A stretch of 64,000 bases of DNA, from contig CBDCXV010000011.1 of assembly GCA_965223905.1 (NCBI GenBank), forward strand, positions 1,376,001-1,440,000, given 5' to 3'. Shown piece after piece: positions 1 to 11,508 of this stretch (its first letter is position 1; every line of letters starts with the position of its first letter). The notes below the pieces were generated by a model. That model had not been told where the DNA came from and ran no database searches. It saw nothing but the letters and a program-made list of their open reading frames with translations. The translations under genes were made by a program, and so were the position numbers. The stretch is from Candidatus Latescibacterota bacterium (GTDB lineage: Bacteria > Latescibacterota > UBA2968 > UBA8231).

Positions 1-1818
1 GTCGTCCTCGTCCAGACCCAACCCACGCCGTACATGCACAGCGAATTCTTGCCCGGTGGGCGCACTTCGCGCCATGTACCGGAACCCCTCCCGCACCGTT
101 CCGCCGCCCTTCGGCTTCAGCACAATCTCCCCGCCCATCCCTTCCTGCACGTCCCAACGCTGTCCCCCAAGCGCTAAGTCACGATCCTCCGCGGGCCGTT
201 GCGCGACATGGGCGACGATCTCGCCCGTGCTGCCGTCGACCACGGGTATGCCGCCGCCGGGGGAATCGAAGTTTGCGTGCATGCCTTTGCCGCCTTCGTC
301 GAAGGCGTCACCCCATGACTCCCCAAGTGCAAGCCGCCCGTGATGTTCCACGAGGTACTCGGTGTTAACGAGACTCTCCACGATCGCTCCCGCGGTGACA
401 GCCGGTTCCTCCGGCCAAACATCGCCCGCTAGGTCGAGAAGGTCGGAACGACGCCGGCCACGCGGTCTACCCTGCGCGACGAAGCTAGCCGTCTGTTGCA
501 CGAACACCGACCACCTGCGTCCATACCCCTGGCCCTCCAAGACGCCATCGCGGGCCGAGAGCAGCATGCTGGCGAGCGCCGCTTTTTCGATTTCCCTTCG
601 CGGAAGGGCCAGAACTCGGGTGCGACCGATTCGCCGCCCCGCCCGCCCGATTCGCTGCAACAGCGAACGGGTGTCGGGTGGTGCGCCGATGAGAGCGACC
701 AAATCGACATCGCCGATGTCCACGCCGACTTCCAACGTGGTGGTAGCCACCAGAACTCCATCTCGCACCGAGGCAAAGCCGCGTTCCGCACGCTCTCGAC
801 GATCACGGGACAAGCTGCCGTGGTGGGCAAACACCTCGATTTCGCGCCGCCGAGGCAATGCACCGGAGAGGTGGGCGGAGAACGTGTCGCACAGGCGGCG
901 AGTCGGCGCGAACACGAGCGCCTTTCGCATGGACTCGCCGTGGCTGGACAGGGCCTGCCAAATCCTCCGCCCTGCACTTTTTCCGAATCCAGCGGCCGGT
1001 ACAAGGTCCAGCCGTTCCCGCAGCGTTTCGATCGTCATTGATGCTTCGAGCGGAAACCACCCTGGAGCATCCGCTGGCCCGAACACCTCGACTTCCCGCG
1101 TACCCTCAACTCGCACCACCTCCGCCTCGGGGCCGAGCAGTCGGCCTGCAAGTCCCTCCGGATCGCTGATGGTGGCGCTGCCGGCGCAGAGTTGGGGTGA
1201 AGGCGGTCCACCACCTGTCGCCAGTTCGACGTGCAGTTGTCGCAAGCGCCGAAGACGGCCCAAGAGCCAGCTGACTTGGTCGCCGCGGGCGGTTCCGTCG
1301 AACAAGTGCGCCTCGTCCACGAACACCGCCATGACTCCGGCGAGCAAGTGATCCACCACTCTACCGGCTTGCAATCGGGCGTCGCGCACCAGCATGGAGT
1401 CGAACGACTCGGGCGTGGTGACGAGCACAAACGGCGCCTTGCCCTTATCTCGGTGATCGCTGGTTTGACGTCCGCAGGCGACACCGAGCCTGTCGAGAGG
1501 CCCCTCGATTCGCGCCGTCAGGTCGTTGACGAGGGCGCGGGTGGGTGCGATGAGAAGTACACGGACACGGGGTGCGCCCCCTCGCGCTTGGTTTAGTGTT
1601 CGCGCGATCAGTGGCGCCAGAATCGCTTCGGTCTTGCCGGACGCGGTGGCCGACGCAACGAGGACGTTTCTTCCCGATCGAATCGGTGGAACCGCTCGCC
1701 GCTGGATCTCGCGGAGCTCGCGAAAGCTTCCGAAGAACGCGGTGCCGACCATTCCGAGAGACCTGACGATGTCGCTGTCACTGGTCATGATTCCCGCATT
1801 CCTCGCGTGCATCCTCAT
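1..1818 (-). CDS. Lhr/BrxHI-like SF2 DEAD/DEAH-box helicase (3' end beyond window edge)
   Basis: Not in the ORF track; translated by hand from ATG 1818 (TGATG overlap with the upstream stop; alternative ATG 1788). Motifs: Q-motif LREIQ, SATASGKTEA (I), IAPTRALVND (Ia), TTPES (Ib), VDEAH (II), SAT (III), HHGSLS, ATTTLEVGVDIGDVD (V), QRIGRAGR (VI). Open to position 1. Confidence 0.92.
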   Translation of the reverse strand, partial: MRMHARNAGIMTSDSDIVRSLGMVGTAFFGSFRELREIQRRAVPPIRSGRNVLVASATASGKTEAILAPLIARTLNQARGGAPRVRVLLIAPTRALVNDLTARIEGPLDRLGVACGRQTSDHRDKGKAPFVLVTTPESFDSMLVRDARLQAGRVVDHLLAGVMAVFVDEAHLFDGTARGDQVSWLLGRLRRLRQLHVELATGGGPPSPQLCAGSATISDPEGLAGRLLGPEAEVVRVEGTREVEVFGPADAPGWFPLEASMTIETLRERLDLVPAAGFGKSAGRRIWQALSSHGESMRKALVFAPTRRLCDTFSAHLSGALPRRREIEVFAHHGSLSRDRRERAERGFASVRDGVLVATTTLEVGVDIGDVDLVALIGAPPDTRSLLQRIGRAGRRIGRTRVLALPRREIEKAALASMLLSARDGVLEGQGYGRRWSVFVQQTASFVAQGRPRGRRRSDLLDLAGDVWPEEPAVTAGAIVESLVNTEYLVEHHGRLALGESWGDAFDEGGKGMHANFDSPGGGIPVVDGSTGEIVAHVAQRPAEDRDLALGGQRWDVQEGMGGEIVLKPKGGGTVREGFRYMARSAPTGQEFAVHVRRGLGLDEDD

Positions 1819-3155
1819 CATGCGCGTTCAGCAGGATTGCCTTCCAAGTCGGACACGACATCCAGCAGTTCAAGAGTCCCCCGTACGAATCCCCGAGGTG
1901 TTGGGTCCAAGGTCTCGTCGTGATGGTGTTCTGCGAAGCGCTCGATCCGTCGTCTTACCGCCTGCGACTCACCACTGGACGTTTGCGTCGGGTACGCGCG
2001 CGCATACAGTTCTTGCAGTCGAACCCCCAACTCTTTCGTCTGCTCCACGCTTGGCCGCGGTGCTTCTATGCGCCTCATCCCGGCGATGGAACCCACCAAG
2101 TCTTGAACGGCATCCTTCCCATCACCAACGTCGTCACTAGCGGGCGCACTCCCGAATGCGAGCAGAATCGGACAGTTTCCCCGCAGAAGATCATCAAACG
2201 CTGCCAGCAACGACCTTCGGAGCCCCTCGAATCGCGTCGCGTACTCGACATCGACTTCATCGAATATGACGGCAAGTCCCTTGGCCCCGGTCAATGCGCA
2301 GAACCCCGCCCACCCTTTCAACAGATCACAAAACCGCTCGGGACGTTCATCCAAGCGCCGAGCCTTCAAGGGCGGCAAGCTGATCCAGTAGTGAAGTTGC
2401 CTGAGCTTCTCCTTGGCCCGAGTTGGAGCCAACGTCAGCATGAAGTAGTCCTCGAGCACTTCCATGGCTTCGGGTTCGTCAAGAGCCTTCTGCGGAATCT
2501 TGAAAATGGCGTCCGCAATTCTCCAGCCCACGCTTTGCCTTACACCTCCGTAGGTACGCCGGCGGCACAGGTCTGCCAATCGGTTGCCGACTCCGCACGG
2601 CGTCACCTCGCCTGGATAACGCAGGGAACCAAGGATGGCTTCCATGAGGCCCATTGGTTCCGACAGCGTGACGCCTTCGTCGTCCAGGATGACTGTCGCC
2701 GTCGCAAGGCCTCTCTCGGCAGCCAATCTGGTCAGGAGCGTGAGGAGATGGGTCTTGCCGGCACCCCACGAACCCTCGATAAGGACGCTTTGGGGCTGAC
2801 GTCGGATGGCAGCGACAATTGCCTGCTCCATCTCGACTCGAATGTCATCGGTACCGATGCTCAACTCCTGAACATTCTCCTCTAGCACCTGCCCGAGCTT
2901 GAGGGCCAGAACTGCACGCCTTGCCGCCACGATATCCTCGGGCAAGGACGGCAGGGGCGTTCCGGCAAGAGGTGGCGGCGGTGCTTCCGGAGTCTCCTCC
3001 AACGATTCTCCAACGTCGTCAGGACGTTTCAGCTCCCGCAACGGTAACCAGGCCGCCACATAGCCGAAGTCGACGTTGACGCCCCGGTGCGAGTCGAGGG
3101 CAACTATGACGCCGTCGCCATACTGTGGGTGCCGGACGGCAATGCCCTGCCTCAA
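1818..3155 (-). CDS. BrxD/DUF2791-like P-loop ATPase with N-terminal Tudor/SH3-like domain
   Basis: 445 aa; Walker A GSWGAGKT, Walker B AVIFDEVD, ALKLGQV lead-in and C-terminal PRGFVRG of BrxD type; N-terminus VRHPQYGDGVIV. Confidence 0.75.
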   Translation of the reverse strand: MRQGIAVRHPQYGDGVIVALDSHRGVNVDFGYVAAWLPLRELKRPDDVGESLEETPEAPPPPLAGTPLPSLPEDIVAARRAVLALKLGQVLEENVQELSIGTDDIRVEMEQAIVAAIRRQPQSVLIEGSWGAGKTHLLTLLTRLAAERGLATATVILDDEGVTLSEPMGLMEAILGSLRYPGEVTPCGVGNRLADLCRRRTYGGVRQSVGWRIADAIFKIPQKALDEPEAMEVLEDYFMLTLAPTRAKEKLRQLHYWISLPPLKARRLDERPERFCDLLKGWAGFCALTGAKGLAVIFDEVDVEYATRFEGLRRSLLAAFDDLLRGNCPILLAFGSAPASDDVGDGKDAVQDLVGSIAGMRRIEAPRPSVEQTKELGVRLQELYARAYPTQTSSGESQAVRRRIERFAEHHHDETLDPTPRGFVRGTLELLDVVSDLEGNPAERA

Positions 3156-4447
3156 GGTTCAAACTCCTCATGGGCGTTAAGGGACTCAAAGGAACCCGAG
3201 TACCGCGCTATGAGTTCGTCGTCCTCAATCTCCCTCTCGCCTTCGGACAACTGGATGTCGAGCAGGTTGACCCAAGTCTTCACGAACAGTCTGCGGGCAT
3301 CGACATCGAGATTCCTCTCGGTCGCGACTCGCGCCAAGCGCCGGGCGTTGATTCGCTGTAGTCCACGATCGAATGGTTGACCGATGGCAATCGCGCCCAC
3401 TTCAATCAGCTTCTCGCCGATATTCGCCAGGAGGGGCTCCTGACTCTGTACCTTGTCGAGCGGCACCTGCGACGCGAAGTCGCTGCCCTGATCGAATGAG
3501 GCGCCCCGTACTGCGAGTCGCTGCTCCAGTGCCGGATACTTGCGAAATTCCTCGAGCACGTCCGGCGTCGCGGAGAAGACACCGAACAGTGGAACACCGC
3601 CGGACACGCCGGTCGGCGCATCCAGAATGACGCGCATTGCACCGAGGATGCGAAGGGCTGCCGCTCCCCTTCGGACCTGAAACAACGTTTCCACCTCGTC
3701 CATGAGAAGAAGTAGCCCGTGCACGCCTGCCTCTGGCAGGAACTTCACGAGGGAGAGCAACAGATTTCGACCGAATTGCCTTCTGCTGGCGGCAGGCACT
3801 CTCGCCAGATGCAACTCCTGCATTTCGCTTCGTCCAAGCGTGTCGATGTCTCCCTGCAACCAGCGCAGGGCGGCGTCTCCGACCGGCGAGTTGACACCGA
3901 CACCGTCGGCAGTCGCTTGAAGTGCTGCCGCCATCACACGCCCGAAGGCATTCTCCGGATAATCTCGCTTCTGGATGTCAGAGACCCACAATCGGAAGGC
4001 CGCGTCGACATCCGGGACGCCGCGTTGCCGAATGTCGTCCCGTTTTGCCCGGGTCGTGGCGCCGAGAAGTACCCGCAGCCCCGGCTGGTCCTGGTCGGGC
4101 AACTGCAAGTGCTTGACGAGCTCCCTGTAAACGTCGAGCGGGTTGTCCAGACTGACCCCCTCACCGCACGGGACGTAGGCGACCGCGAAGTTCTCCTGGT
4201 CGCGGGCGCGAATGCCGAGAGTGAGAAGGAAGTGCGTCTTGCCTCCTCCGTATGGCGACAGAACCAGCTTGAAGTGCGCGTCGCTTCGGCATAGGCCCTG
4301 GAGGTACCGCTTGGCAAGGCGGTCGATCCACGGATCGATGCCAACCGAGTAGCTCGGCAAGACGTGCGAAGCTTGCGTCAGTTCCGTCGGAGCCTTGCCC
4401 TCTTCTCCCAGCTTGGCCCAAAGTTGATGGGCCTCGCTTTGGTTCAT
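3152..4447 (-). CDS. BrxD/DUF2791-like P-loop ATPase
   Basis: Real start MNQSEAHQ at 4447 (ATGA overlap); Walker A SPYGGGKTH, Walker B LLLMDEVE, RWLQG, YPALEQRL, RLFVK. Confidence 0.82.
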   Translation of the reverse strand: MNQSEAHQLWAKLGEEGKAPTELTQASHVLPSYSVGIDPWIDRLAKRYLQGLCRSDAHFKLVLSPYGGGKTHFLLTLGIRARDQENFAVAYVPCGEGVSLDNPLDVYRELVKHLQLPDQDQPGLRVLLGATTRAKRDDIRQRGVPDVDAAFRLWVSDIQKRDYPENAFGRVMAAALQATADGVGVNSPVGDAALRWLQGDIDTLGRSEMQELHLARVPAASRRQFGRNLLLSLVKFLPEAGVHGLLLLMDEVETLFQVRRGAAALRILGAMRVILDAPTGVSGGVPLFGVFSATPDVLEEFRKYPALEQRLAVRGASFDQGSDFASQVPLDKVQSQEPLLANIGEKLIEVGAIAIGQPFDRGLQRINARRLARVATERNLDVDARRLFVKTWVNLLDIQLSEGEREIEDDELIARYSGSFESLNAHEEFEP

Positions 4448-5685
4448 ATCAGCCTCCCTTGGGTATCGGCAGACGCCACCTTTTGCGCGACCAGCCCGGC
4501 TGCATGCTTGACGAACTCGCGAACGCGCCCTTCGGTGATGTAGTTCGCGTACTGATTGGCGATCTCTTTCAATGAATGCGCGATGTGTCCCGCATCCGAG
4601 GGATGCAACCCCGCTGCCAATCCGATGTCGATAATGCGATCGCTCAAATCTGCAAAGAAGCGAGGGTCCTGTGGGCTGGGATCGGTCAATTCGTCGATGT
4701 TCACCCAGACCGCTCGGGGGTTGGAGGTCCCGTCCAACTCGGGTGGCCGGGCTCGTTCGATCCGCTGACAGAGCGCCCCGAGGTTCCTGCCTGCGATGTC
4801 GATGAACTCCTCCGTAACGGCGTAGTAAATCGCGCAACCGCGAAACGCGCCGGTCGCCATGTGGTCGACGAAGGTGCGGATATGTGCGAGATGCGCATGC
4901 TGGCGACGGCTGAGAATGGACCACGTACTCCGCAAGGCTGCCTCGGTCTCGTCAAAGAGCACCACCAGCCCGTTATAGCCCAACACCTGCGGGAGCGACA
5001 GCACCGAACGTAACCACACCGCCGCATTGCGTCTTACGAGCTTCCCGAGCGGTCGGGGCAGTTGCGGATGTTCCCGGTACAGTGTGCCCAACGTGACGCG
5101 GAACGTCGGCGTGCTCGCCAGAAGTGCCTCGAGCCGATCCGCCAAGTCCTCGTCACCGCCGCCGGCCACCGCCTCCGTGCAATAGGCGACGGCCAAGTTT
5201 CGGAAGTCCGGCGACAATGCGCGATCAGCTTTCAAACGTGCGATGACCTCCCGCTGCTTGATGGCGTCCAAGCCGGTAAACCGCGCTTCGATGGTCTTTG
5301 TAATCCCGGTGGCGGCGAAGAATCTGTGCGTTCCGGGCGGCGTCATGCCGGCCGCAATCGCACGGTAGGTCTCGACCAGAGACTCGAACGGCCTCTGGGA
5401 ATCCACGTATGCGGTGACGCAGCCGAACTCGCTTGCCCATTGGGCCATCGCCTTGAGGAAATGCGTCTTCCCGCGCCCGTACGGGCCGAAGATGAACTGG
5501 ATTTCCCCGCCTCCCGCGGCGATAACCGGAAGTGTCTCGCGCTTTATCCGATCCAGAGACTCGCTTAACCCGGCAGACACCCGTAGAACGGCCGCGCCGT
5601 CATCCGGCGGCGTACCCAGTTCAGCAAGATGCGCGAGCAACTCCAATGGATCGACATCCACGCCGCCTATGCCCTCTCGATCCAA
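4444..5685 (-). CDS. BrxD/DUF2791-like P-loop ATPase
   Basis: 413 aa (start may be GTG 5661); Walker A GPYGRGKTH, Walker B VVLFDETE, ALCQRI, VREFVK. Confidence 0.82.
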   Translation of the reverse strand: MDREGIGGVDVDPLELLAHLAELGTPPDDGAAVLRVSAGLSESLDRIKRETLPVIAAGGGEIQFIFGPYGRGKTHFLKAMAQWASEFGCVTAYVDSQRPFESLVETYRAIAAGMTPPGTHRFFAATGITKTIEARFTGLDAIKQREVIARLKADRALSPDFRNLAVAYCTEAVAGGGDEDLADRLEALLASTPTFRVTLGTLYREHPQLPRPLGKLVRRNAAVWLRSVLSLPQVLGYNGLVVLFDETEAALRSTWSILSRRQHAHLAHIRTFVDHMATGAFRGCAIYYAVTEEFIDIAGRNLGALCQRIERARPPELDGTSNPRAVWVNIDELTDPSPQDPRFFADLSDRIIDIGLAAGLHPSDAGHIAHSLKEIANQYANYITEGRVREFVKHAAGLVAQKVASADTQGRLI

Positions 5686-6533
5686 AGGGCGCCTAGCTGC
5701 GGGCCGCCGCTGCCGTCGCCGTCGAGCGACGGCAAGGTGACGGTTGCGCCCCTGGAGATGGACGCCATGTTCGGCCCCTGATTGCGCAGGCGTTCGCCTC
5801 GGTCAGTCTTCCACCCGTCCCGGCCGAACCGGGCGAGGTCGAAGACGAACTGCGCCATCGAATACTCGGTGAAGGACTTCGTCACCGGGCGTTTGATGAA
5901 GCGCTCGTCGCGGCTCTGCCGTGCGAGCACGAACAGTGGGTACAGAGTGCGAATGGGCACCTTGCCATCTCGGTCCTTTTCCTGCCGCCGCGCAAGGTGG
6001 ATGGCGTCCTTGATAGACTCGATGAAGTCCGGCCGTACGAAGGGAAACCCCTCTAGCTTCGACTTCTCCTGTTGGAGACGCGTGAACAAGCGCGCCCCAT
6101 CCGGCTCGTCGAAGGTCGTAAGCTCCTCACTACCCAGCCGCAACGTCACTTGCTCCAACTTGTAGCTCACTTGAAAGCCGCCGGCGAAGTCGTACTCCTT
6201 TAACCGCTTGACTGGCCAGCCGGCTTCCTTTGCGGATCGAGCCAGTTGTTCTCGACGATGCCTGAGCGCCTCGTCTCGGTTTTGAGCGAGCGCGGAGCGC
6301 TGGCCATTCAAAACTGGAATCACCTCATCAAGGTTGATCCCTTTGAGCGCCTCGATTGCTTTGTCCAGAGTAGATACTTCTCCCAGACCCCTAATCTTGG
6401 GTTTCACCAGTATGGCTACGGCCTTACTCGCCTTGTCGAGCGCCTTTTTCGTGTCCACCAGAATCTCGTGCAGACGTTCATTCGTCTCTTCGGGATCTGT
6501 TTCAAAGAGAAGCTGTTCTTGCTTGTTTGCCAT
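5667..6533 (-). CDS. Hypothetical protein heading the ATPase-helicase operon (coiled-coil N-terminus)
   Basis: 288 aa ORF with natural composition whose stop abuts or overlaps the first ATPase start. Confidence 0.75.
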   Translation of the reverse strand: MANKQEQLLFETDPEETNERLHEILVDTKKALDKASKAVAILVKPKIRGLGEVSTLDKAIEALKGINLDEVIPVLNGQRSALAQNRDEALRHRREQLARSAKEAGWPVKRLKEYDFAGGFQVSYKLEQVTLRLGSEELTTFDEPDGARLFTRLQQEKSKLEGFPFVRPDFIESIKDAIHLARRQEKDRDGKVPIRTLYPLFVLARQSRDERFIKRPVTKSFTEYSMAQFVFDLARFGRDGWKTDRGERLRNQGPNMASISRGATVTLPSLDGDGSGGPQLGALWIERA

Positions 6534-6913
6534 GCTTCGTCCGTTTCTCTGTTTCTGCAGTCCTCTCGTACGTTACGTCCGTCGAGCCATTTAAATCTTT
6601 GGGTTTTCGTTCCCGCACCAGAAATTGCTTCATCGCGATCCCGTAATCATCCTCCTTGGGCCGCATCTTCTCAATAAACTCCGCCTCCACCTGGACATGC
6701 TGCGCTCATTCCTCAGCGCACGGATATGCTAGCAGTGGGCGAGGCCCACGGTAGCGTAATGGCTACTTTCTTCGCCGAATCCTCCTGACCCCCTTAGACC
6801 GAGTTCAGGCAGGTGGGGTTGAGAGCCTGAGGGGCCTAGCCTGTTGCTAGACGCGCAAAAAGCGACGGCGCGAGTTCCGGGAAAGAAAATCTCTCCGCCC
6901 CGCGCAAATTCGC

Positions 6914-7219
6914 CTAACCAGCCCCCACCTCGAGGGTCGGTATGCCGGAGACATCCACCGTACGCTCCGCGACCGCCAGATCGTGGATGCGCTGCAGGTT
7001 CACCCAGAAGCCGGCGCCGTTGCCGAACAGCTTGCCGAAACGAACCGCCATCTCGGCGGAAACAGGCTGCTTCTCGTTCAGGATGTCGTACAGCGTCTGC
7101 CGGGATATCCCCAGCGCCTTTGCAACGGCTGTCCTGCTCATGGAGAGCGCAGGCAGTACCTCCTCGCGCAGGATCTCCCCCGGATGCACCGGATCAATGG
7201 AGGGGTGTCTTCTGATCAT
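6914..7219 (-). CDS. higA: HigA family antitoxin (HTH)
   Basis: PVHPGEILREE...ALGISRQTL...SAEMAVRFGKLFG...FWVNLQ signature. Confidence 0.93.
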   Translation of the reverse strand: MIRRHPSIDPVHPGEILREEVLPALSMSRTAVAKALGISRQTLYDILNEKQPVSAEMAVRFGKLFGNGAGFWVNLQRIHDLAVAERTVDVSGIPTLEVGAG

Positions 7220-7497
7220 CAGTGATAGTCCTCAATGTCAACGTCCGCAGCACCGTCATCGTCCCAACCGAATGTGACGCGCACATTGGCCGTCAGGCGA
7301 ACGGAGTAGCGGCCCTCACGGTCGCCCTTCAGGGGATGAAAATACGATCCAGGATAGTTTATCTGCCCGGGTCGCTCCGCCGCTTCGAGAGCCGCCATGA
7401 TCCGTCGCAGTTTCCGAGTCCACTCTGCGTTCAGACCCTTCGTTTGCCCCCTTGTCCAGTAATGCCGAAGAGCCTTGTGGCGAATGCTTCCGATCAT
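7219..7497 (-). CDS. higB: HigB (RelE/ParE superfamily) toxin
   Basis: MIGSIRHKAL...FHPLKGDREGRYSVRLTANVRVTF...DIEDYH; toxin-first order coupled to higA. Confidence 0.93.
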   Translation of the reverse strand: MIGSIRHKALRHYWTRGQTKGLNAEWTRKLRRIMAALEAAERPGQINYPGSYFHPLKGDREGRYSVRLTANVRVTFGWDDDGAADVDIEDYH

Positions 7498-7500
7498 AAC

Positions 7501-7544
7501 TCAATGATGTATTGAAGCGGTTAATTGTCAAGTGATGACTTACA
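7501..7544 (-). promoter_or_regulatory. Putative higBA promoter/operator
   Basis: TTGACA on the minus strand (7526-7531) within an imperfect palindrome TGTCAAGT..ACTTACA; second palindrome TCAAT..ATTGA just before the higB start. Confidence 0.45.
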
Positions 7545-7567
7545 GGCCGCTTGGATTCGGCTAAGCC

Positions 7568-8314: not shown

Positions 8315-9554
8315 AGGCGACTCCTCCCCTGTCCTCGAGCTCGGCGTAGCGCCGGGCGAACCCGGCGCTGCCGTTGTCGTCGATCACCTCGAGGCTGGAA
8401 CCGGCTTCGAAGATCGGCAGCCCGGCCTGCCGGTAGCGCCCGTGGAAGGCGCTGCGGTTGCCGGCGATCTCGACGATCTCGCCGCCGGCCCGGGTGTAGC
8501 GGTAGACGTGGCGGGGCTCCTTCACCGTCGTGTAGTCGACGGCGTATTTCTCGATCGCGGCCTCGTCGATCTCGACGCCGAGCCCGGGTCCGTCGGGAAC
8601 CGGGTAATAGCCGCCCCTCACCTGGAGCGGGGTTTCGAGCAGCTGGGACTCGTAGATGTTCATGCAGGTGATCGCCGGCCACCGCGCCTCGCTGCAAACG
8701 GAGCCCACGTGGGCGGCCCAAGCCGTGGTCAGGCCGGAGCCGACCAGCTGCAGCCAGAACGGCTTGTTGGCGGCCGCGGCCACCGCCTGCTGCTGCATGA
8801 TCTGCGCGGCCCCGCCGCCGATGATGAGGCCGTCGGCGATGTCGTCGCGGAGCATGACCATGACCGGGGGGCGGTCGACGTGCATGGCGACCGGCCGGTC
8901 GATCCGCGCCCGCAGGTGGCGGTTCCCGGCGATGTCCTCCTGCGGGATGGGGGTCTCGATCATCGCCACCTGCTCGTACTGCTCCAGCGACTTCAGCAGG
9001 GGCACGGCGTTGGCGGAGTTGACGAGGTGGCCGTTGAAGTCGAGGTCGAGCCGGAACTGCGGCGGGATCACCTGCTGTACCGCCTCGATGCAGGCGTGCA
9101 GATCCTGCCAGGGCCGTGTCTTCAGCTTGGCCGACATGTAGCCCCGGGCCACCGCGGTCTCGCACTCCCGCGCCCAGCCCTTCGGGTCCATGTCGCAGGT
9201 CCACCAGGAGATCGGGCACCAGTTGCGGACCCGGGGGCCGAGCAGGTCGCGGACCGGGACGTTCTCGTTCCTCGCCACCGCGTCGAACAGGGCGATCTGG
9301 ACGCCGCAGCCGAGGCCGTCGTTCCAGAGCAGCGAGGCGGCTTCCCTGCCGAGGATGCGGTCCTCGATGTCGTCGGGGACGCGGGCGTGGGTGGCGTTGA
9401 GGATGGTCTCCCCCCAGCCGGCGACGCCGTTGTCCAGGGTCAGGCGGCACAGCTGGACGATCCGCCACGGGGAGATCCAGTACTTCAGGTAGCGGCCGGC
9501 GTGGGCTTCGAAGGGCACGTCGAGGTGGATGAGCTCGACACGGGCCACCTTCAT
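8304..9554 (-). CDS. Mandelate racemase/muconate lactonizing enzyme family protein
   Basis: Start MKVARVEL after GGAGG; GWGE, IALFD, KLK, DFN and IETP motifs, PDGPGLGVEID. Confidence 0.88.
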   Translation of the reverse strand: MKVARVELIHLDVPFEAHAGRYLKYWISPWRIVQLCRLTLDNGVAGWGETILNATHARVPDDIEDRILGREAASLLWNDGLGCGVQIALFDAVARNENVPVRDLLGPRVRNWCPISWWTCDMDPKGWARECETAVARGYMSAKLKTRPWQDLHACIEAVQQVIPPQFRLDLDFNGHLVNSANAVPLLKSLEQYEQVAMIETPIPQEDIAGNRHLRARIDRPVAMHVDRPPVMVMLRDDIADGLIIGGGAAQIMQQQAVAAAANKPFWLQLVGSGLTTAWAAHVGSVCSEARWPAITCMNIYESQLLETPLQVRGGYYPVPDGPGLGVEIDEAAIEKYAVDYTTVKEPRHVYRYTRAGGEIVEIAGNRSAFHGRYRQAGLPIFEAGSSLEVIDDNGSAGFARRYAELEDRGGVAFAG

Positions 9555-10051
9555 TTGGGTCCTCCTGTCGCTTCGGTATATGTCACGGGACGGGTCAGGG
9601 ATCCGGCAGGGGGGATTTCCACCCTGTCGAGGCCCGGCGCCAAATGTACGCAACCGATGCCGGAAGACCGGATTAGCCAGCGGCGGGTGCCTCCCGAGCC
9701 GGCATTGCTAGAATTGAAGTCGGACGGATCAGGAGCAGGCACTCCGACCGCCGAAAATCAATGGAATTATAGAAAAATTCCTGATTCCGCTTGATGAATT
9801 TGAGTATTGGTATGCCGGTTAGCCGTAAACCATGTCCTGGTTCTGCATGGACCCGTCGGCTTCTTGACTGCACGGGACATTGACAAGAATCCCATGATAC
9901 TTGCCCCCGGAGGGGGAGCGGTCATCCTGGTCCTGCCTGCGAAGTCATGTGCACTGAATATCCCTGAGGAATCGTTGATGGTCTTGAGCGCCTACAGGTC
10001 CTATGTCAGGTCAGCGCATCAGCCTGACGGATCCTTACGACGCCTTCGTCA

Positions 10052-10081
10052 TTGACAGTTGACAGCGAAGTCCTATATATT
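10052..10081 (+). promoter_or_regulatory. Sigma70-like promoter of the low-GC islet
   Basis: TTGACA at 10052 (second copy at 10059) and TATATT at 10076. Confidence 0.45.
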
Positions 10082-10373
10082 AAAGACTGCTTGGTCCTCC
10101 TAACGTGTTGGTAGGCAATTGGTTACAACAGGAGTCCGCCATGGTGGAGCAGCCAACTACCCCAAAGGTACCCCGACTGGGAGAAGAGGAGGGAAAGCCG
10201 GAGCAGTCCATGAAGGTAAACGACAACCCCGGTTAGGTTGGCCGGGCAACCTTCGCCATGCCCGGCTTCCGGATCCGTCACACAGGATCCGAAACCAGCC
10301 GAAGGAAAAAGCCCAAGACTAATGAGGTATCATCACCTACAGTGAGACTAAATGTCAACGGAGGGATAGCAAA

Positions 10374-10913
10374 ATGGCCGAACAAGTGCAAATCCCTTAC
10401 GTCTCCGATGTCACGAGACAAACCGCTTGGGAGCAAATGTGGGACATTGATAGGTACATTCGATACTATGGTATTCTTGCGGTTCGAAATCAGCGCAAAC
10501 ATAATTGGTTGCGTCTAGGGCTGATTGTTTTTGCGACTGCCGGTAGTCTCATTGCCTTTACCGAATCCTATCTATGGCTAACTCCTATTCTCATTGGGGC
10601 AATGACAGCCGCTTATACCGTGTGGGATCAAATAGCTGCATATCAAATGAGATCACAAGCGGCTTCAACCATTAAGCGAGAGCTGAATGAGTTATCAATC
10701 CAATACAGGTCCCTGTGGAACGCCATCGAGACCTATGACATTCTTGATTCAGAAGTAAGGCGTCAACTAGTAGCATTACATGAGAAAGAAACACAGATAA
10801 CAAGCCGTGGAGATTTACAGGGGTTACATACGAATAACAGACTGAATAAAAAATGTTCCCAACAGGCATTTGACCTAATTGGCAATCAGGTAGAATCACC
10901 CAATGCCGCCTGA
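10374..10913 (+). CDS. Two-TM SLATT-like membrane protein
   Basis: 179 aa; helix, two adjacent hydrophobic segments (WLRLGLIVFATAGSLIAF; LWLTPILIGAMTAAYTVW), then helical C-terminus; low GC; GGAGG upstream. Confidence 0.6.
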   Translation: MAEQVQIPYVSDVTRQTAWEQMWDIDRYIRYYGILAVRNQRKHNWLRLGLIVFATAGSLIAFTESYLWLTPILIGAMTAAYTVWDQIAAYQMRSQAASTIKRELNELSIQYRSLWNAIETYDILDSEVRRQLVALHEKETQITSRGDLQGLHTNNRLNKKCSQQAFDLIGNQVESPNAA

Positions 10914-11043
10914 AAGAAGATTTGCGGGCCCTCCAAGACCCATTAAACCTCCTTCTGCCCCTCCACGCCCACAACCTCCTGCCAATCCTCAACCAGCGCA
11001 AAAACCTCCTCCTAAGCAGGACCCACCAAAACCGAAGGAATAA
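10903..11043 (+). CDS. 46-aa proline-rich microprotein
   Basis: Hand translation MPPERRFAGPPRPIKPPSAPPRPQPPANPQPAQKPPPKQDPPKPKE*; overlaps the end of the SLATT-like gene. Confidence 0.5.
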   Translation: MPPERRFAGPPRPIKPPSAPPRPQPPANPQPAQKPPPKQDPPKPKE

Positions 11044-11048
11044 CTGAA

Positions 11049-11324
11049 TTGGACGTAGATGACTCCAAATTAGTTCCATACATGAATGAAGTATGTGTAG
11101 GAAGGAATTGGCCGGAGAAGAAGAAGGCTCTGGAAGAGAGCGAGATAGCGGAAAGTCTTGTTGTATCGACAAGCAAATACGGGGACTGGTGCCATCTCCT
11201 GCTTATATTGAAGGATCGATCAATACGGCGTATTCGCATTCAAAGTAGTGATCTCAGTAGTGATCTCAGAAAAAGAAATGCACTTGAGTTTGTAAACGAT
11301 CTCAGGTGGTGTCTTTTGGGTTGA
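11049..11324 (+). CDS. Small hypothetical protein
   Basis: 91 aa ORF 5 nt after the previous stop (AAGGA RBS), followed by a terminator; contains a 12-bp tandem duplication AGTAGTGATCTC. Confidence 0.5.
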   Translation: MDVDDSKLVPYMNEVCVGRNWPEKKKALEESEIAESLVVSTSKYGDWCHLLLILKDRSIRRIRIQSSDLSSDLRKRNALEFVNDLRWCLLG

Positions 11325-11354
11325 TCTAATCGGCGCTTGTAGTCCCCGATCTCC

Positions 11355-11390
11355 AAAGCCCCCTCGATTTCAATCGAGCGGGCTTTTCTT
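11355..11390 (+). terminator. Intrinsic terminator (possibly bidirectional)
   Basis: Hairpin AAAGCCCcCTCGATT-tc-AATCGAGcGGGCTTT followed by TCTT, between convergent genes. Confidence 0.75.
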
Positions 11391-11508
11391 GTGCTGTTCA
11401 TTTCAACCGAGATGAGATCCTGCCGGACCCGTGACGACTGCGCCGCTCCCCACGGGACGAACATCTCCCGGTCGATCTGGTGCGCAACAGCCGTGAATGG
11501 GCACCCGC

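Follow-up and report, generated by a model that had tools for sequence, protein, structure and literature searches.

Which function can be assigned to a row of five genes that codes for a protein of no described family, three BrxD-like AAA+ ATPases and an Lhr-like superfamily 2 (SF2) helicase? The row lies at the left edge of a stretch of 64,000 nucleotides from a Candidatus Latescibacterota genome (assembly GCA_965223905.1, contig CBDCXV010000011.1, positions 1,376,001 to 1,440,000 of the forward strand), here called the window (G000:C11:1376001-1440000). The genes are termed A to E in the order of transcription. A first-pass annotation of the window had seen in them a candidate new anti-phage system. 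We infer for the cassette, with a probability of roughly 0.6, the function and mechanism of a stand-alone, horizontally mobile, defence-type module of the kind represented by Shango and by the BrxD-BrxHI pair of BREX (bacteriophage exclusion) type 2. It is probably an undescribed relative of these anti-phage helper modules. Two groups of observations argue for defence: the families of its enzymes are not known from outside defence, the helicase falling in an antiphage clade, and the cassette is mobile, patchy in distribution and often decaying, stands beside a toxin-antitoxin pair and has defence genes as neighbours in a third of its loci.

Enzymes and first protein of the cassette

All three ATPases exceeded the Pfam cut-off of PF10923, BrxC_BrxD (22.2 bits), with E values of 9.7e-22 for B, 2.2e-24 for C (residues 33-400) and 1.3e-15 for D; the DUF2791/BrxD membership proposed in the first-pass annotation was thus borne out by profile. 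The best PADLOC match was BrxD in each case (B 2.8e-17, C 6e-21, D 1.2e-11), SngB scored weaker (4.5e-6 to 8e-5). As reference for a BREX type 2 BrxD served a gene of a Sphaerotilus plasmid, adjoining annotated pglX and pglZ. Identity to this protein was 29 % for C (E 1.6e-15) and 27 % for B (E 5e-12), D had no significant match to it, and between B and C the identity is 25 %. A sequence search revealed no solved-structure relative of C. The Walker A lysine and the Walker B Asp-Glu pair were conserved to at least 95 % in the sequences compared (25 of B, 21 of C and 23 of D). Invariant in 24 B sequences were G70-K73, D245 and E246; conserved were G67-T71, D250 and E251 in 21 sequences of C, the best conserved ATPase of the three, and G131, G133, K134, D299 and E300 in 23 sequences of D. 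Judged by the Walker motifs, none of the three appears to be a dead subunit. In a tree of 69 ATPases and one BREX type 2 BrxD, each paralogue formed a single clade (SH-aLRT 100, 99 and 100 for B, C and D) and the internal branching ran in parallel; B, C and D split before the cassette spread and have travelled together since then. The earlier description of three diverged ATPases that all keep Walker A and B therefore extends to the orthologues. BrxD-type ATPases have been placed in the ORC/Cdc6 clade of AAA+ proteins in the available part of a BREX survey (PMC12839542).

Helicase E contains the Pfam domains DEAD (1.5e-29) and Helicase_C (5e-20). Its top four PADLOC families were BrxHI (1.9e-71), SngC (4.8e-57), and next DpdJ and DruE. 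The best solved relatives found by sequence are the Lhr structures 5v9x (1e-23) and 7lhl (6e-23), matching over the motor domain only, in agreement with the earlier call of an Lhr-like helicase. Lhr itself prefers RNA:DNA hybrids. The region downstream of the Sphaerotilus-plasmid brxD showed 30.5 % identity to E over the motor. A model of the C-terminal 334 amino acids (predicted local distance difference test, pLDDT, 74.3) included a predicted winged helix with similarity to Hel308 (2va8_B, Z 7.9) and aligned to Lhr 5v9x_A with Z 7.0 over 247 residues (root-mean-square deviation 6.2). Foldseek returned nothing for the C-terminus at E ≤ 0.001. No nuclease fold was seen in the C-terminal model, in which residues ~590-745 were not searched as a separate domain. 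SngC, BrxHI, DruE and DpdJ constitute a helicase clade defined by antiphage functions, as far as the accessible text of Tuck et al. (2024, PMC12278908) goes. By profile and structure comparison, E shares the nearest PADLOC families with this antiphage SF2 clade, as well as the Lhr-core-like winged helix and the domain following it.

Protein A had no match in Pfam, PADLOC or NCBIfam, as the first-pass annotation had implied in calling it an unknown protein. A TerB-like gene, reported there as not visible, was not detected either: A gave no Pfam TerB match even at E ≤ 10 and no PADLOC match at E ≤ 0.01. Relatives of A were grouped into 106 clusters of 47-100 % identity, nearly all unnamed metagenome proteins, and a protein-atlas search yielded unnamed clusters only. 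The A profile found 301 representative proteins at E ≤ 1e-3, 62 of these at E ≤ 1e-30; 31 weaker matches had no Pfam family above cut-off. No match to A was present among 72,556 plasmids, 50,697 phage records or viral contigs. The predicted fold (AlphaFold2, pLDDT 88.7) starts with three long helices, continues with a beta meander of five strands plus a helix, and ends in a C-terminal domain of helices and strands; by this model, the N-terminus would be a coiled coil and the C-terminus winged-helix-like. Foldseek against the Protein Data Bank gave no match at E ≤ 0.001. For the middle domain, the VIA wide comparison named sandwiches of the Mediator, type III secretion system chaperone and frataxin-like types, with middling scores (Z up to 7.2 across A).

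ATPase D differs by its start. Most D orthologues begin with ~45 residues of the pattern M..G..VRHP..G.G.V...(V)DFGY, in which His9 and Gly13 are conserved; a linker of 30-100 residues, rich in Pro and Glu, comes next. The profile of these N-termini was compared by hhalign to the C-terminal Tudor domain of the UvrD/PcrA encoded in the host genome itself, located with PF21196, and scored 94 % with E 1.5e-7; addition of sequences from the four-gene cassettes described below raised this to 95 % and E 4e-8. In the control, none of 300 random 60-amino-acid segments reached 50 % (maximum 2.7). The profile comparison suggests a PcrA/UvrD-like Tudor domain at the N-terminus of D. In PcrA and UvrD the Tudor domain is the RNA polymerase interaction domain, according to the parts available of PMC5397179, PMC8318588 and PMC3797733.

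The coordinates are collected in the table. For C an internal ATG of a longer open reading frame (ORF), 3152-4924, was picked as start, since the orthologues have 428-437 amino acids. Helicase E is open at the window edge; an extension of the contig to the left, asked for in the first-pass annotation, completed it at 745 amino acids, with the gene end 416 nt left of window position 1 (G000:C11:1375584), and no BREX core genes were found there. The five co-directional genes and their overlapping or abutting ends (TGATG, TTGA, ATGA) were all recovered from ORF coordinates and sequence. At the D/E junction an ATGATG spans about 1816-1821: the D stop TGA (1820-1818) overlaps the E start ATG (1821-1819), and a second ATG stands at 1818-1816. 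The C/D junction is TTGA (3155-3152), the B/C junction ATGA (4447-4444), and the A/B junction depends on the start of B, with an overlap of 19 nt for TTG 5685 or a gap of 5 nt for GTG 5661. The toxin-antitoxin pair higA/higB upstream of A, already named in the annotation, was verified for both genes by Pfam; it is encoded on the same strand within the same inserted island. A lower G+C content than that of the flanks had also been noted. It is a contrast on one side only: the cassette has 0.60-0.66, the right flank 0.70-0.71 and the left flank just 0.64-0.67. Promoter-like and terminator-like sites did not exceed chance (3 against 1.9 expected and 5 against 7.7 expected, respectively).

Table. 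Features of the cassette and its island in window coordinates. Positions in the locus frame L038, used for sites left of the window, convert as window coordinate = L038 - 8000.
Feature	Position	Strand	Description
Gene A	5667-6533	minus	288 aa, family without description
Gene B	4444-5685	minus	BrxD-like AAA+ ATPase, 413 aa (start TTG 5685) or 405 aa (start GTG 5661)
Gene C	3152-4447	minus	BrxD-like AAA+ ATPase, 431 aa
Gene D	1818-3155	minus	BrxD-like AAA+ ATPase, 445 aa, most diverged of the three
D, N-terminal ~45 residues	3021-3155	minus	PcrA/UvrD-type Tudor-like small beta-barrel (putative), then Pro/Glu-rich linker of variable length
Gene E	1-1821, open at window edge	minus	BrxHI/SngC/Lhr-like SF2 helicase, first 607 of 745 codons
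higA	6914-7219	minus	Pfam HTH_3, 2e-07
higB	7219-7497	minus	Pfam HigB-like_toxin, 1.8e-10
Accessory island, window part	1-7560	.	9.7-kb insertion between typA and an epimerase gene

Distribution and genomic setting

A scan of one genome per species located the cassette at 29 loci in other genomes, all of them metagenome-assembled genomes (MAGs). Their labels cover at least seven phylum-level groups and include Acidobacteriota (mostly Vicinamibacterales), Binatia, Gamma- and Betaproteobacteria, Desulfomonilaceae/Syntrophaceae, Gemmatimonadetes, Planctomycetaceae and Verrucomicrobiota. The order A-B-C-D-E on one strand and at near-full length was obtained by tblastn with the five window proteins at 20 loci, two of which (L002, L018) have apparent frameshifts; the conservation of the three-ATPase and helicase order, on which the first-pass annotation had made its proposal depend, is therefore given. 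Four loci are cut by contig ends (L015, L019, L020, L023), and five are truncated, interrupted or decayed (L006, L009, L012, L017, L030), several of them adjoining transposases. Each paralogue had its best match at its own position. In the order of the host, the A profile found no match among 75 other genomes of 58-98 % completeness, and in the sampled Vicinamibacterales the cassette was present in 2 of 301 genomes, the query genome counted. The copy nearest to that of the window (79-89 % amino-acid identity) comes from a MAG that bears the label Gammaproteobacteria. This placement, together with the absence from the 75 genomes, indicates horizontal transfer, and the sequences thus point to a horizontal acquisition of the window cassette.

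Three observations concern the copy number and exchange of cassettes. The Vicinamibacterales genome OZ242003.1 has two five-gene cassettes (L009 and L010), one of them broken by insertions. Genome G076 carries both a five-gene and a four-gene cassette (L007, L073). The B proteins of L013, in a Methylobacillus-labelled MAG, and of L015, in a Syntrophobacteraceae-labelled MAG, are almost identical (branches of 0.007 and 0.015), which is either a very recent transfer or a binning error.

The borders of the insertion were defined by the same-genus genome G011, which is collinear with the typA side as far as L038:5821 and continues from L038:15561, the two stretches being separated by 19 bp. The insertion in the host genome consequently measures 9.7 kb (window -2178 to 7560) and contains a sulfatase-gene fragment, a 157-aa orphan ORF, the genes E, D, C, B and A, and higA and higB. 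A second genome of the genus, G012, has at the same junction a 390-bp higA/higB remnant (C3:2447703-2448092) that matches window 6960-7350 with 90 % identity, without the cassette. With the remnant in G012 and an empty site in a third genome, the typA-epimerase junction looks like a recurrent insertion/deletion spot. Neither a tRNA nor clear flanking direct repeats were detected at the island ends, and the 9.7 kb hold no integrase, relaxase, partition or Rep gene and no methyltransferase.

Outside of the island follow, left of E, a convergent typA/bipA gene, an Omp85 gene and genes of WD40 and fibronectin type, and right of higBA an epimerase and an enolase-superfamily gene. No pglX, pglZ, brxC/pglY or PglW was linked to the cassette, whose surroundings consist of typA, Omp85, WD40, sulfatase fragments, higBA, the epimerase and the enolase-family gene. 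In the whole 7.9-Mb assembly, PF10923 matched just B, C and D (five matched stretches). The sole PglZ-domain ORF of the genome (G000:C9:663985-664563, in an open frame of 533 aa) is on another contig without a PF10923 partner and is probably not BREX. The cassette is not BREX type 2, and the proposal of a stand-alone module lacking pglX, pglZ and brxC stands.

At the left end of the island lies a 220-aa C-terminal sulfatase fragment (L038:6095-6757, window -1905 to -1243), which repeats with 94 % identity the terminal part of the sulfatase gene situated directly upstream of typA (C11:1371166-1371810). A third sulfatase copy of ~150 bp with 76-84 % identity directly follows the helicase stop (L038:7452-7600, window -548 to -400). 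These copies suggest recombination at sulfatase sequences during formation of the island. The 157-aa orphan ORF (L038:6741-7214, window -1259 to -786) is on the plus strand in a patch of 55 % G+C, convergent with the helicase. A GIY-YIG nuclease motif had been read by eye in this ORF; it was rejected, as Pfam gave no support and none of the other 29 loci has this ORF. A second patch of low G+C content is located at window 9500-11500 (0.47-0.54 in surroundings of ~0.70). It includes an ORF of 179 aa (10374-10913, plus strand) with a sub-cut-off match to SLATT_1, a two-transmembrane effector domain (E 1e-4), and this may be another small acquired defence-type gene.

Neighbouring ORFs within 6 kb of the 29 cassettes were called greedily, giving 184 of at least 90 aa, of which the 164 of at least 125 aa were kept and 20 dropped. 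They were scanned with Pfam and PADLOC at E ≤ 1e-12 (80 ORFs) or E ≤ 1e-15 (84 ORFs). Nine of the 29 loci had known or candidate defence genes in this range, in line with the placement in defence islands that the annotation had foreseen: HEC-01 (L002), PDC-S02 and PDC-S01 (L003), PtuB (L005), PDC-S02 with a type III restriction endonuclease and a TIR protein (L006), a type I restriction endonuclease with an Mrr-like gene and RmrTA (L011), gRAMP (L013), an MkoA-like gene (L016), mad6/PglW with mad5 and mad2 (L029), and mad5, mad3 and mad2 (L030). This list leaves aside two further PADLOC matches, to a ClpB-like gene in L003 and to a sigma-54 activator in L017. In the two Verrucomicrobiota MAGs (L029:2218-9830, L030:4046-9742) the cassette stands back to back with genes matching the methylation-associated defence system (MADS): a mad6/PglW-like NERD-kinase, a mad5 specificity subunit, a mad2 methyltransferase and a mad3 ATPase. 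This adjacency may be accidental within an island, or it may reflect a functional pairing comparable to that of BREX type 2 with BrxD-BrxHI. MADS itself is without BrxD or BrxHI in the available part of its description (PMC13662399).

Relation to a four-gene sibling, Shango and BREX type 2

A distant A-like family was present in 17 of 401 sampled Acidobacteriota genomes, a few with the five-gene type included. Its homology to A extends along the entire protein (hhalign 99.9 %, E 1.9e-31, 268 columns) at ~23 % identity. Twelve of these loci were scanned with profiles from the orthologue sets of A to E. Nine contain a four-gene cassette of an A-like gene, a B/C-like ATPase, a D-like ATPase and a helicase, one is of the five-gene type, and in two (L065, L071) the profiles detected the A-like gene alone, without ATPase or helicase beside it, which may represent another architecture. 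The four-gene helicases matched the E profile with 1e-83 to 1e-130. Both cassettes have in common the homologous first protein, the gene order, the E-type helicase, and a second ATPase of D type that also starts with the Tudor-like motif; they differ in the number of ATPases, two instead of three. A tree built jointly from the ATPases of both cassettes grouped D with the second ATPase of the four-gene form (95) and placed the first as sister (93) to B and C, the union of B and C itself being weak (64). This sister position is most simply explained if a duplication of the first ATPase gave rise to the five-gene form. The four-gene form is the commoner one, and three ATPases are not the defining trait. 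Of the first-pass annotation's hallmark thus remains that three ATPases are present and conserved, but the commoner sibling manages with two. The family is recognised instead by an A-family gene, one or two ATPases of B/C type, a D-type ATPase and an E-type helicase, all co-directional, and the window genes present this whole set.

The closest published system is Shango, composed of the TerB protein SngA, the DUF2791 ATPase SngB and the DEAD/DEAH helicase SngC, which protects P. aeruginosa from several phages by a mechanism described as unknown in the available part of the report (10.1101/2022.11.11.516204). Shared features are a small first protein, a BrxD-family AAA+ ATPase, an Lhr-like SF2 helicase and the organisation as a stand-alone operon without nuclease. 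Whereas the first protein of Shango is a TerB protein, A is not; Shango has one ATPase, the window cassette three, one of them with a Tudor-like N-terminus. E matches SngC well (4.8e-57) but BrxHI better, and the ATPases too fit the BREX models better than those of Shango.

BrxD and BrxHI form a linked dyad in BREX type 2, and BrxD has been proposed to load or activate BrxHI (Rakesh and Krishnan 2026, PMC12839542, available part). The dyad supplies the best-scoring family for all four enzymes of the window, and its genes are likewise adjacent and co-directional. Unlike BREX type 2, the window cassette has no PglX, PglZ, BrxC or PglW, and its ATPases score far below the equivalog cut-off. BrxD of BREX type 2 has no extra domains as presented in that part of PMC12839542, whereas in the window cassette D carries a putative one, and protein A comes in addition. 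As an analogy only, the loading of MCM by ORC/Cdc6-Cdt1 also combines paralogous AAA+ subunits of the ORC/Cdc6 clade, a winged-helix accessory protein and a helicase; however, E is a monomer-type SF2 helicase rather than a ring helicase, and A resembles winged helices only weakly.

PADLOC-DB v2 (2023) contains no model for A, and the enzymes match only the BrxD/SngB and BrxHI/SngC models. A literature search, with the supplementary neighbourhood tables of PMC12839542 outside its range, found no cassette with two or three BrxD-like ATPases; the available part of this survey treats BrxD-BrxHI solely within BREX type 2. The claim of a new defence system is therefore to be narrowed. Protein A, the cassette ATPases and the helicase have no PADLOC-DB v2 model of their own, but operons of TerB, DUF2791 and Lhr genes are the published Shango, so that the cassette is a variant of that sort.

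Defence and competing explanations

The following mechanism is proposed for a defence-type cassette. B, C and D may assemble to a hetero-oligomeric, ATP-driven loader or switch, as do ORC/Cdc6 or clamp loaders with paralogous subunits. A would be a DNA-binding or sensing adaptor in place of the TerB protein SngA of Shango, and the putative Tudor domain of D could tether the complex to RNA polymerase or another nucleic-acid machine. The complex would then place or activate E either on foreign DNA or on structures linked to transcription, for instance R-loops, and unwinding or stripping by E, rather than cleavage, would block phage replication or gene expression. E is considered the effector because the conserved set includes no nuclease. 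In a narrower version, which we rate as quite improbable, the cassette is a transcription-coupled immune sensor: the ORC-like loader would dock to RNA polymerase via the Tudor domain of D, sense together with A phage transcription complexes or R-loops, and load E to dismantle them, without a nuclease or an abortive toxin.

Several points weigh against the defence reading. The defence claims are drawn from sequence and predicted structure, and the hetero-oligomer, the contact of A with the ATPases and the binding to RNA polymerase are proposals. In the genes of cassette and island, no nuclease or toxic domain was found. With the NCBIfam equivalog for BrxD (NF033438, cut-off 350 bits), B, C and D obtained 61.5, 74.2 and 42 bits; because 42-74 bits compare to a cut-off of 350 bits, the three are, by sequence, distant relatives of BrxD and not BrxD proper. 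The similarity of A residues 165-288 to the winged helices of ORC1, Cdc6, Cdt1 and TubR is weak (VIA-align, Z 5.5-6.1), and the modelled winged helix in A is to be seen as a lead only. For the Tudor domain, PF21196 stayed below threshold in 6 of 12 D-type N-termini (12.5-18.2 bits, cut-off 23.9), with CarD_TRCF_RID and an SH3 family alongside, and had no match in the other six, including the D of the window; neither the whole-genome search nor the first hmmscan with this family matched D. In 5 of 22 D orthologues (L013, L017, L021, L022, L027) the Tudor-like segment could not be aligned. Twenty of the 29 loci are without a PADLOC defence neighbour, several of them with short flanks, and many of these 20 are located among housekeeping genes (rpoA, SSB/L9, AcrB, PAS kinases). 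The share of nine in 29 is suggestive and does not amount to a statistical test.

An accessory function in genome maintenance is a competing but unlikely explanation. In this case, an AAA+ assembly tethered to RNA polymerase would bring in an Lhr-type helicase for the clearance of R-loops, of transcription complexes that have stalled or of damaged DNA, and so act as a mobile counterpart to the UvrD/PcrA or Mfd pathways. Among solved structures E is closest to Lhr DNA-repair helicases, the putative Tudor domain of D is of the type used by PcrA/UvrD in transcription-coupled processes, a nuclease or toxic effector is not present, and 20 of 29 loci have no defence neighbours. A maintenance function is hard to reconcile with the very patchy distribution (0 of 75 and 2 of 301 genomes), the location in an insertion island with a toxin-antitoxin pair, the frequent decay or transposon damage (L006, L009, L012, L017, L030), and the presence of two copies in one genome and of the five- plus the four-gene form in another. 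Moreover, the closest families, BrxD, SngB, BrxHI and SngC, are known only from defence systems.

Very unlikely is a module by which an integrated mobile element would replicate or maintain itself, with ORC/Cdc6-like initiators, a winged-helix protein and a helicase as its replication proteins. The assignment of such ATPases to the ORC/Cdc6 clade (PMC12839542, available part), the weak resemblance of the C-terminus of A to the winged helices of ORC, Cdc6 and Cdt1, the location within an inserted island and a KfrA-like plasmid protein near the cassette of L011 fit to this view. However, the island lacks an integrase, relaxase, partition or Rep gene, A has no counterpart in the plasmid, phage and viral sequences searched, and E is an SF2 helicase of the Lhr type and not a hexameric replicative helicase. 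Least credible of all is a leftover helper of a BREX type 2 or MADS-like methylation system with the core genes lost or elsewhere: BrxD and BrxHI are a linked dyad in BREX type 2 (PMC12839542, available part) and two cassettes (L029, L030) stand back to back with mad2, mad3, mad5 and mad6/PglW-like genes, but the genome has no other PF10923 gene and a single PglZ-domain ORF on another contig, the island has no methyltransferase, the full five-gene set is kept at 20 of 29 loci, only two of the 29 adjoin a methylation system, and B and C are 27-29 % identical to a real BREX type 2 BrxD, to which D has no significant match.

As a defence-type module, the cassette and its two-ATPase sibling extend the group of Shango and BrxD-BrxHI to a graded series with one, two or three ATPases, in which the first protein is swappable between TerB and the A family. 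The cassette is invisible as a system to PADLOC-DB v2, so that counts of defence systems in phyla of soil and sediment (Acidobacteriota, Verrucomicrobiota, Desulfobacterota, Binatota) would miss it. The most useful new features are the ATPase with its putative Tudor domain and the graded series itself. That catalytic motifs are kept in all paralogous ATPases points to an asymmetric loader. A transcription-coupled sensor, if true, would also explain how Shango and the BrxD-BrxHI modules work. The three leads, an asymmetric loader, a winged-helix-like first protein and a putative Tudor domain of PcrA/UvrD type, could together show what the whole group senses.

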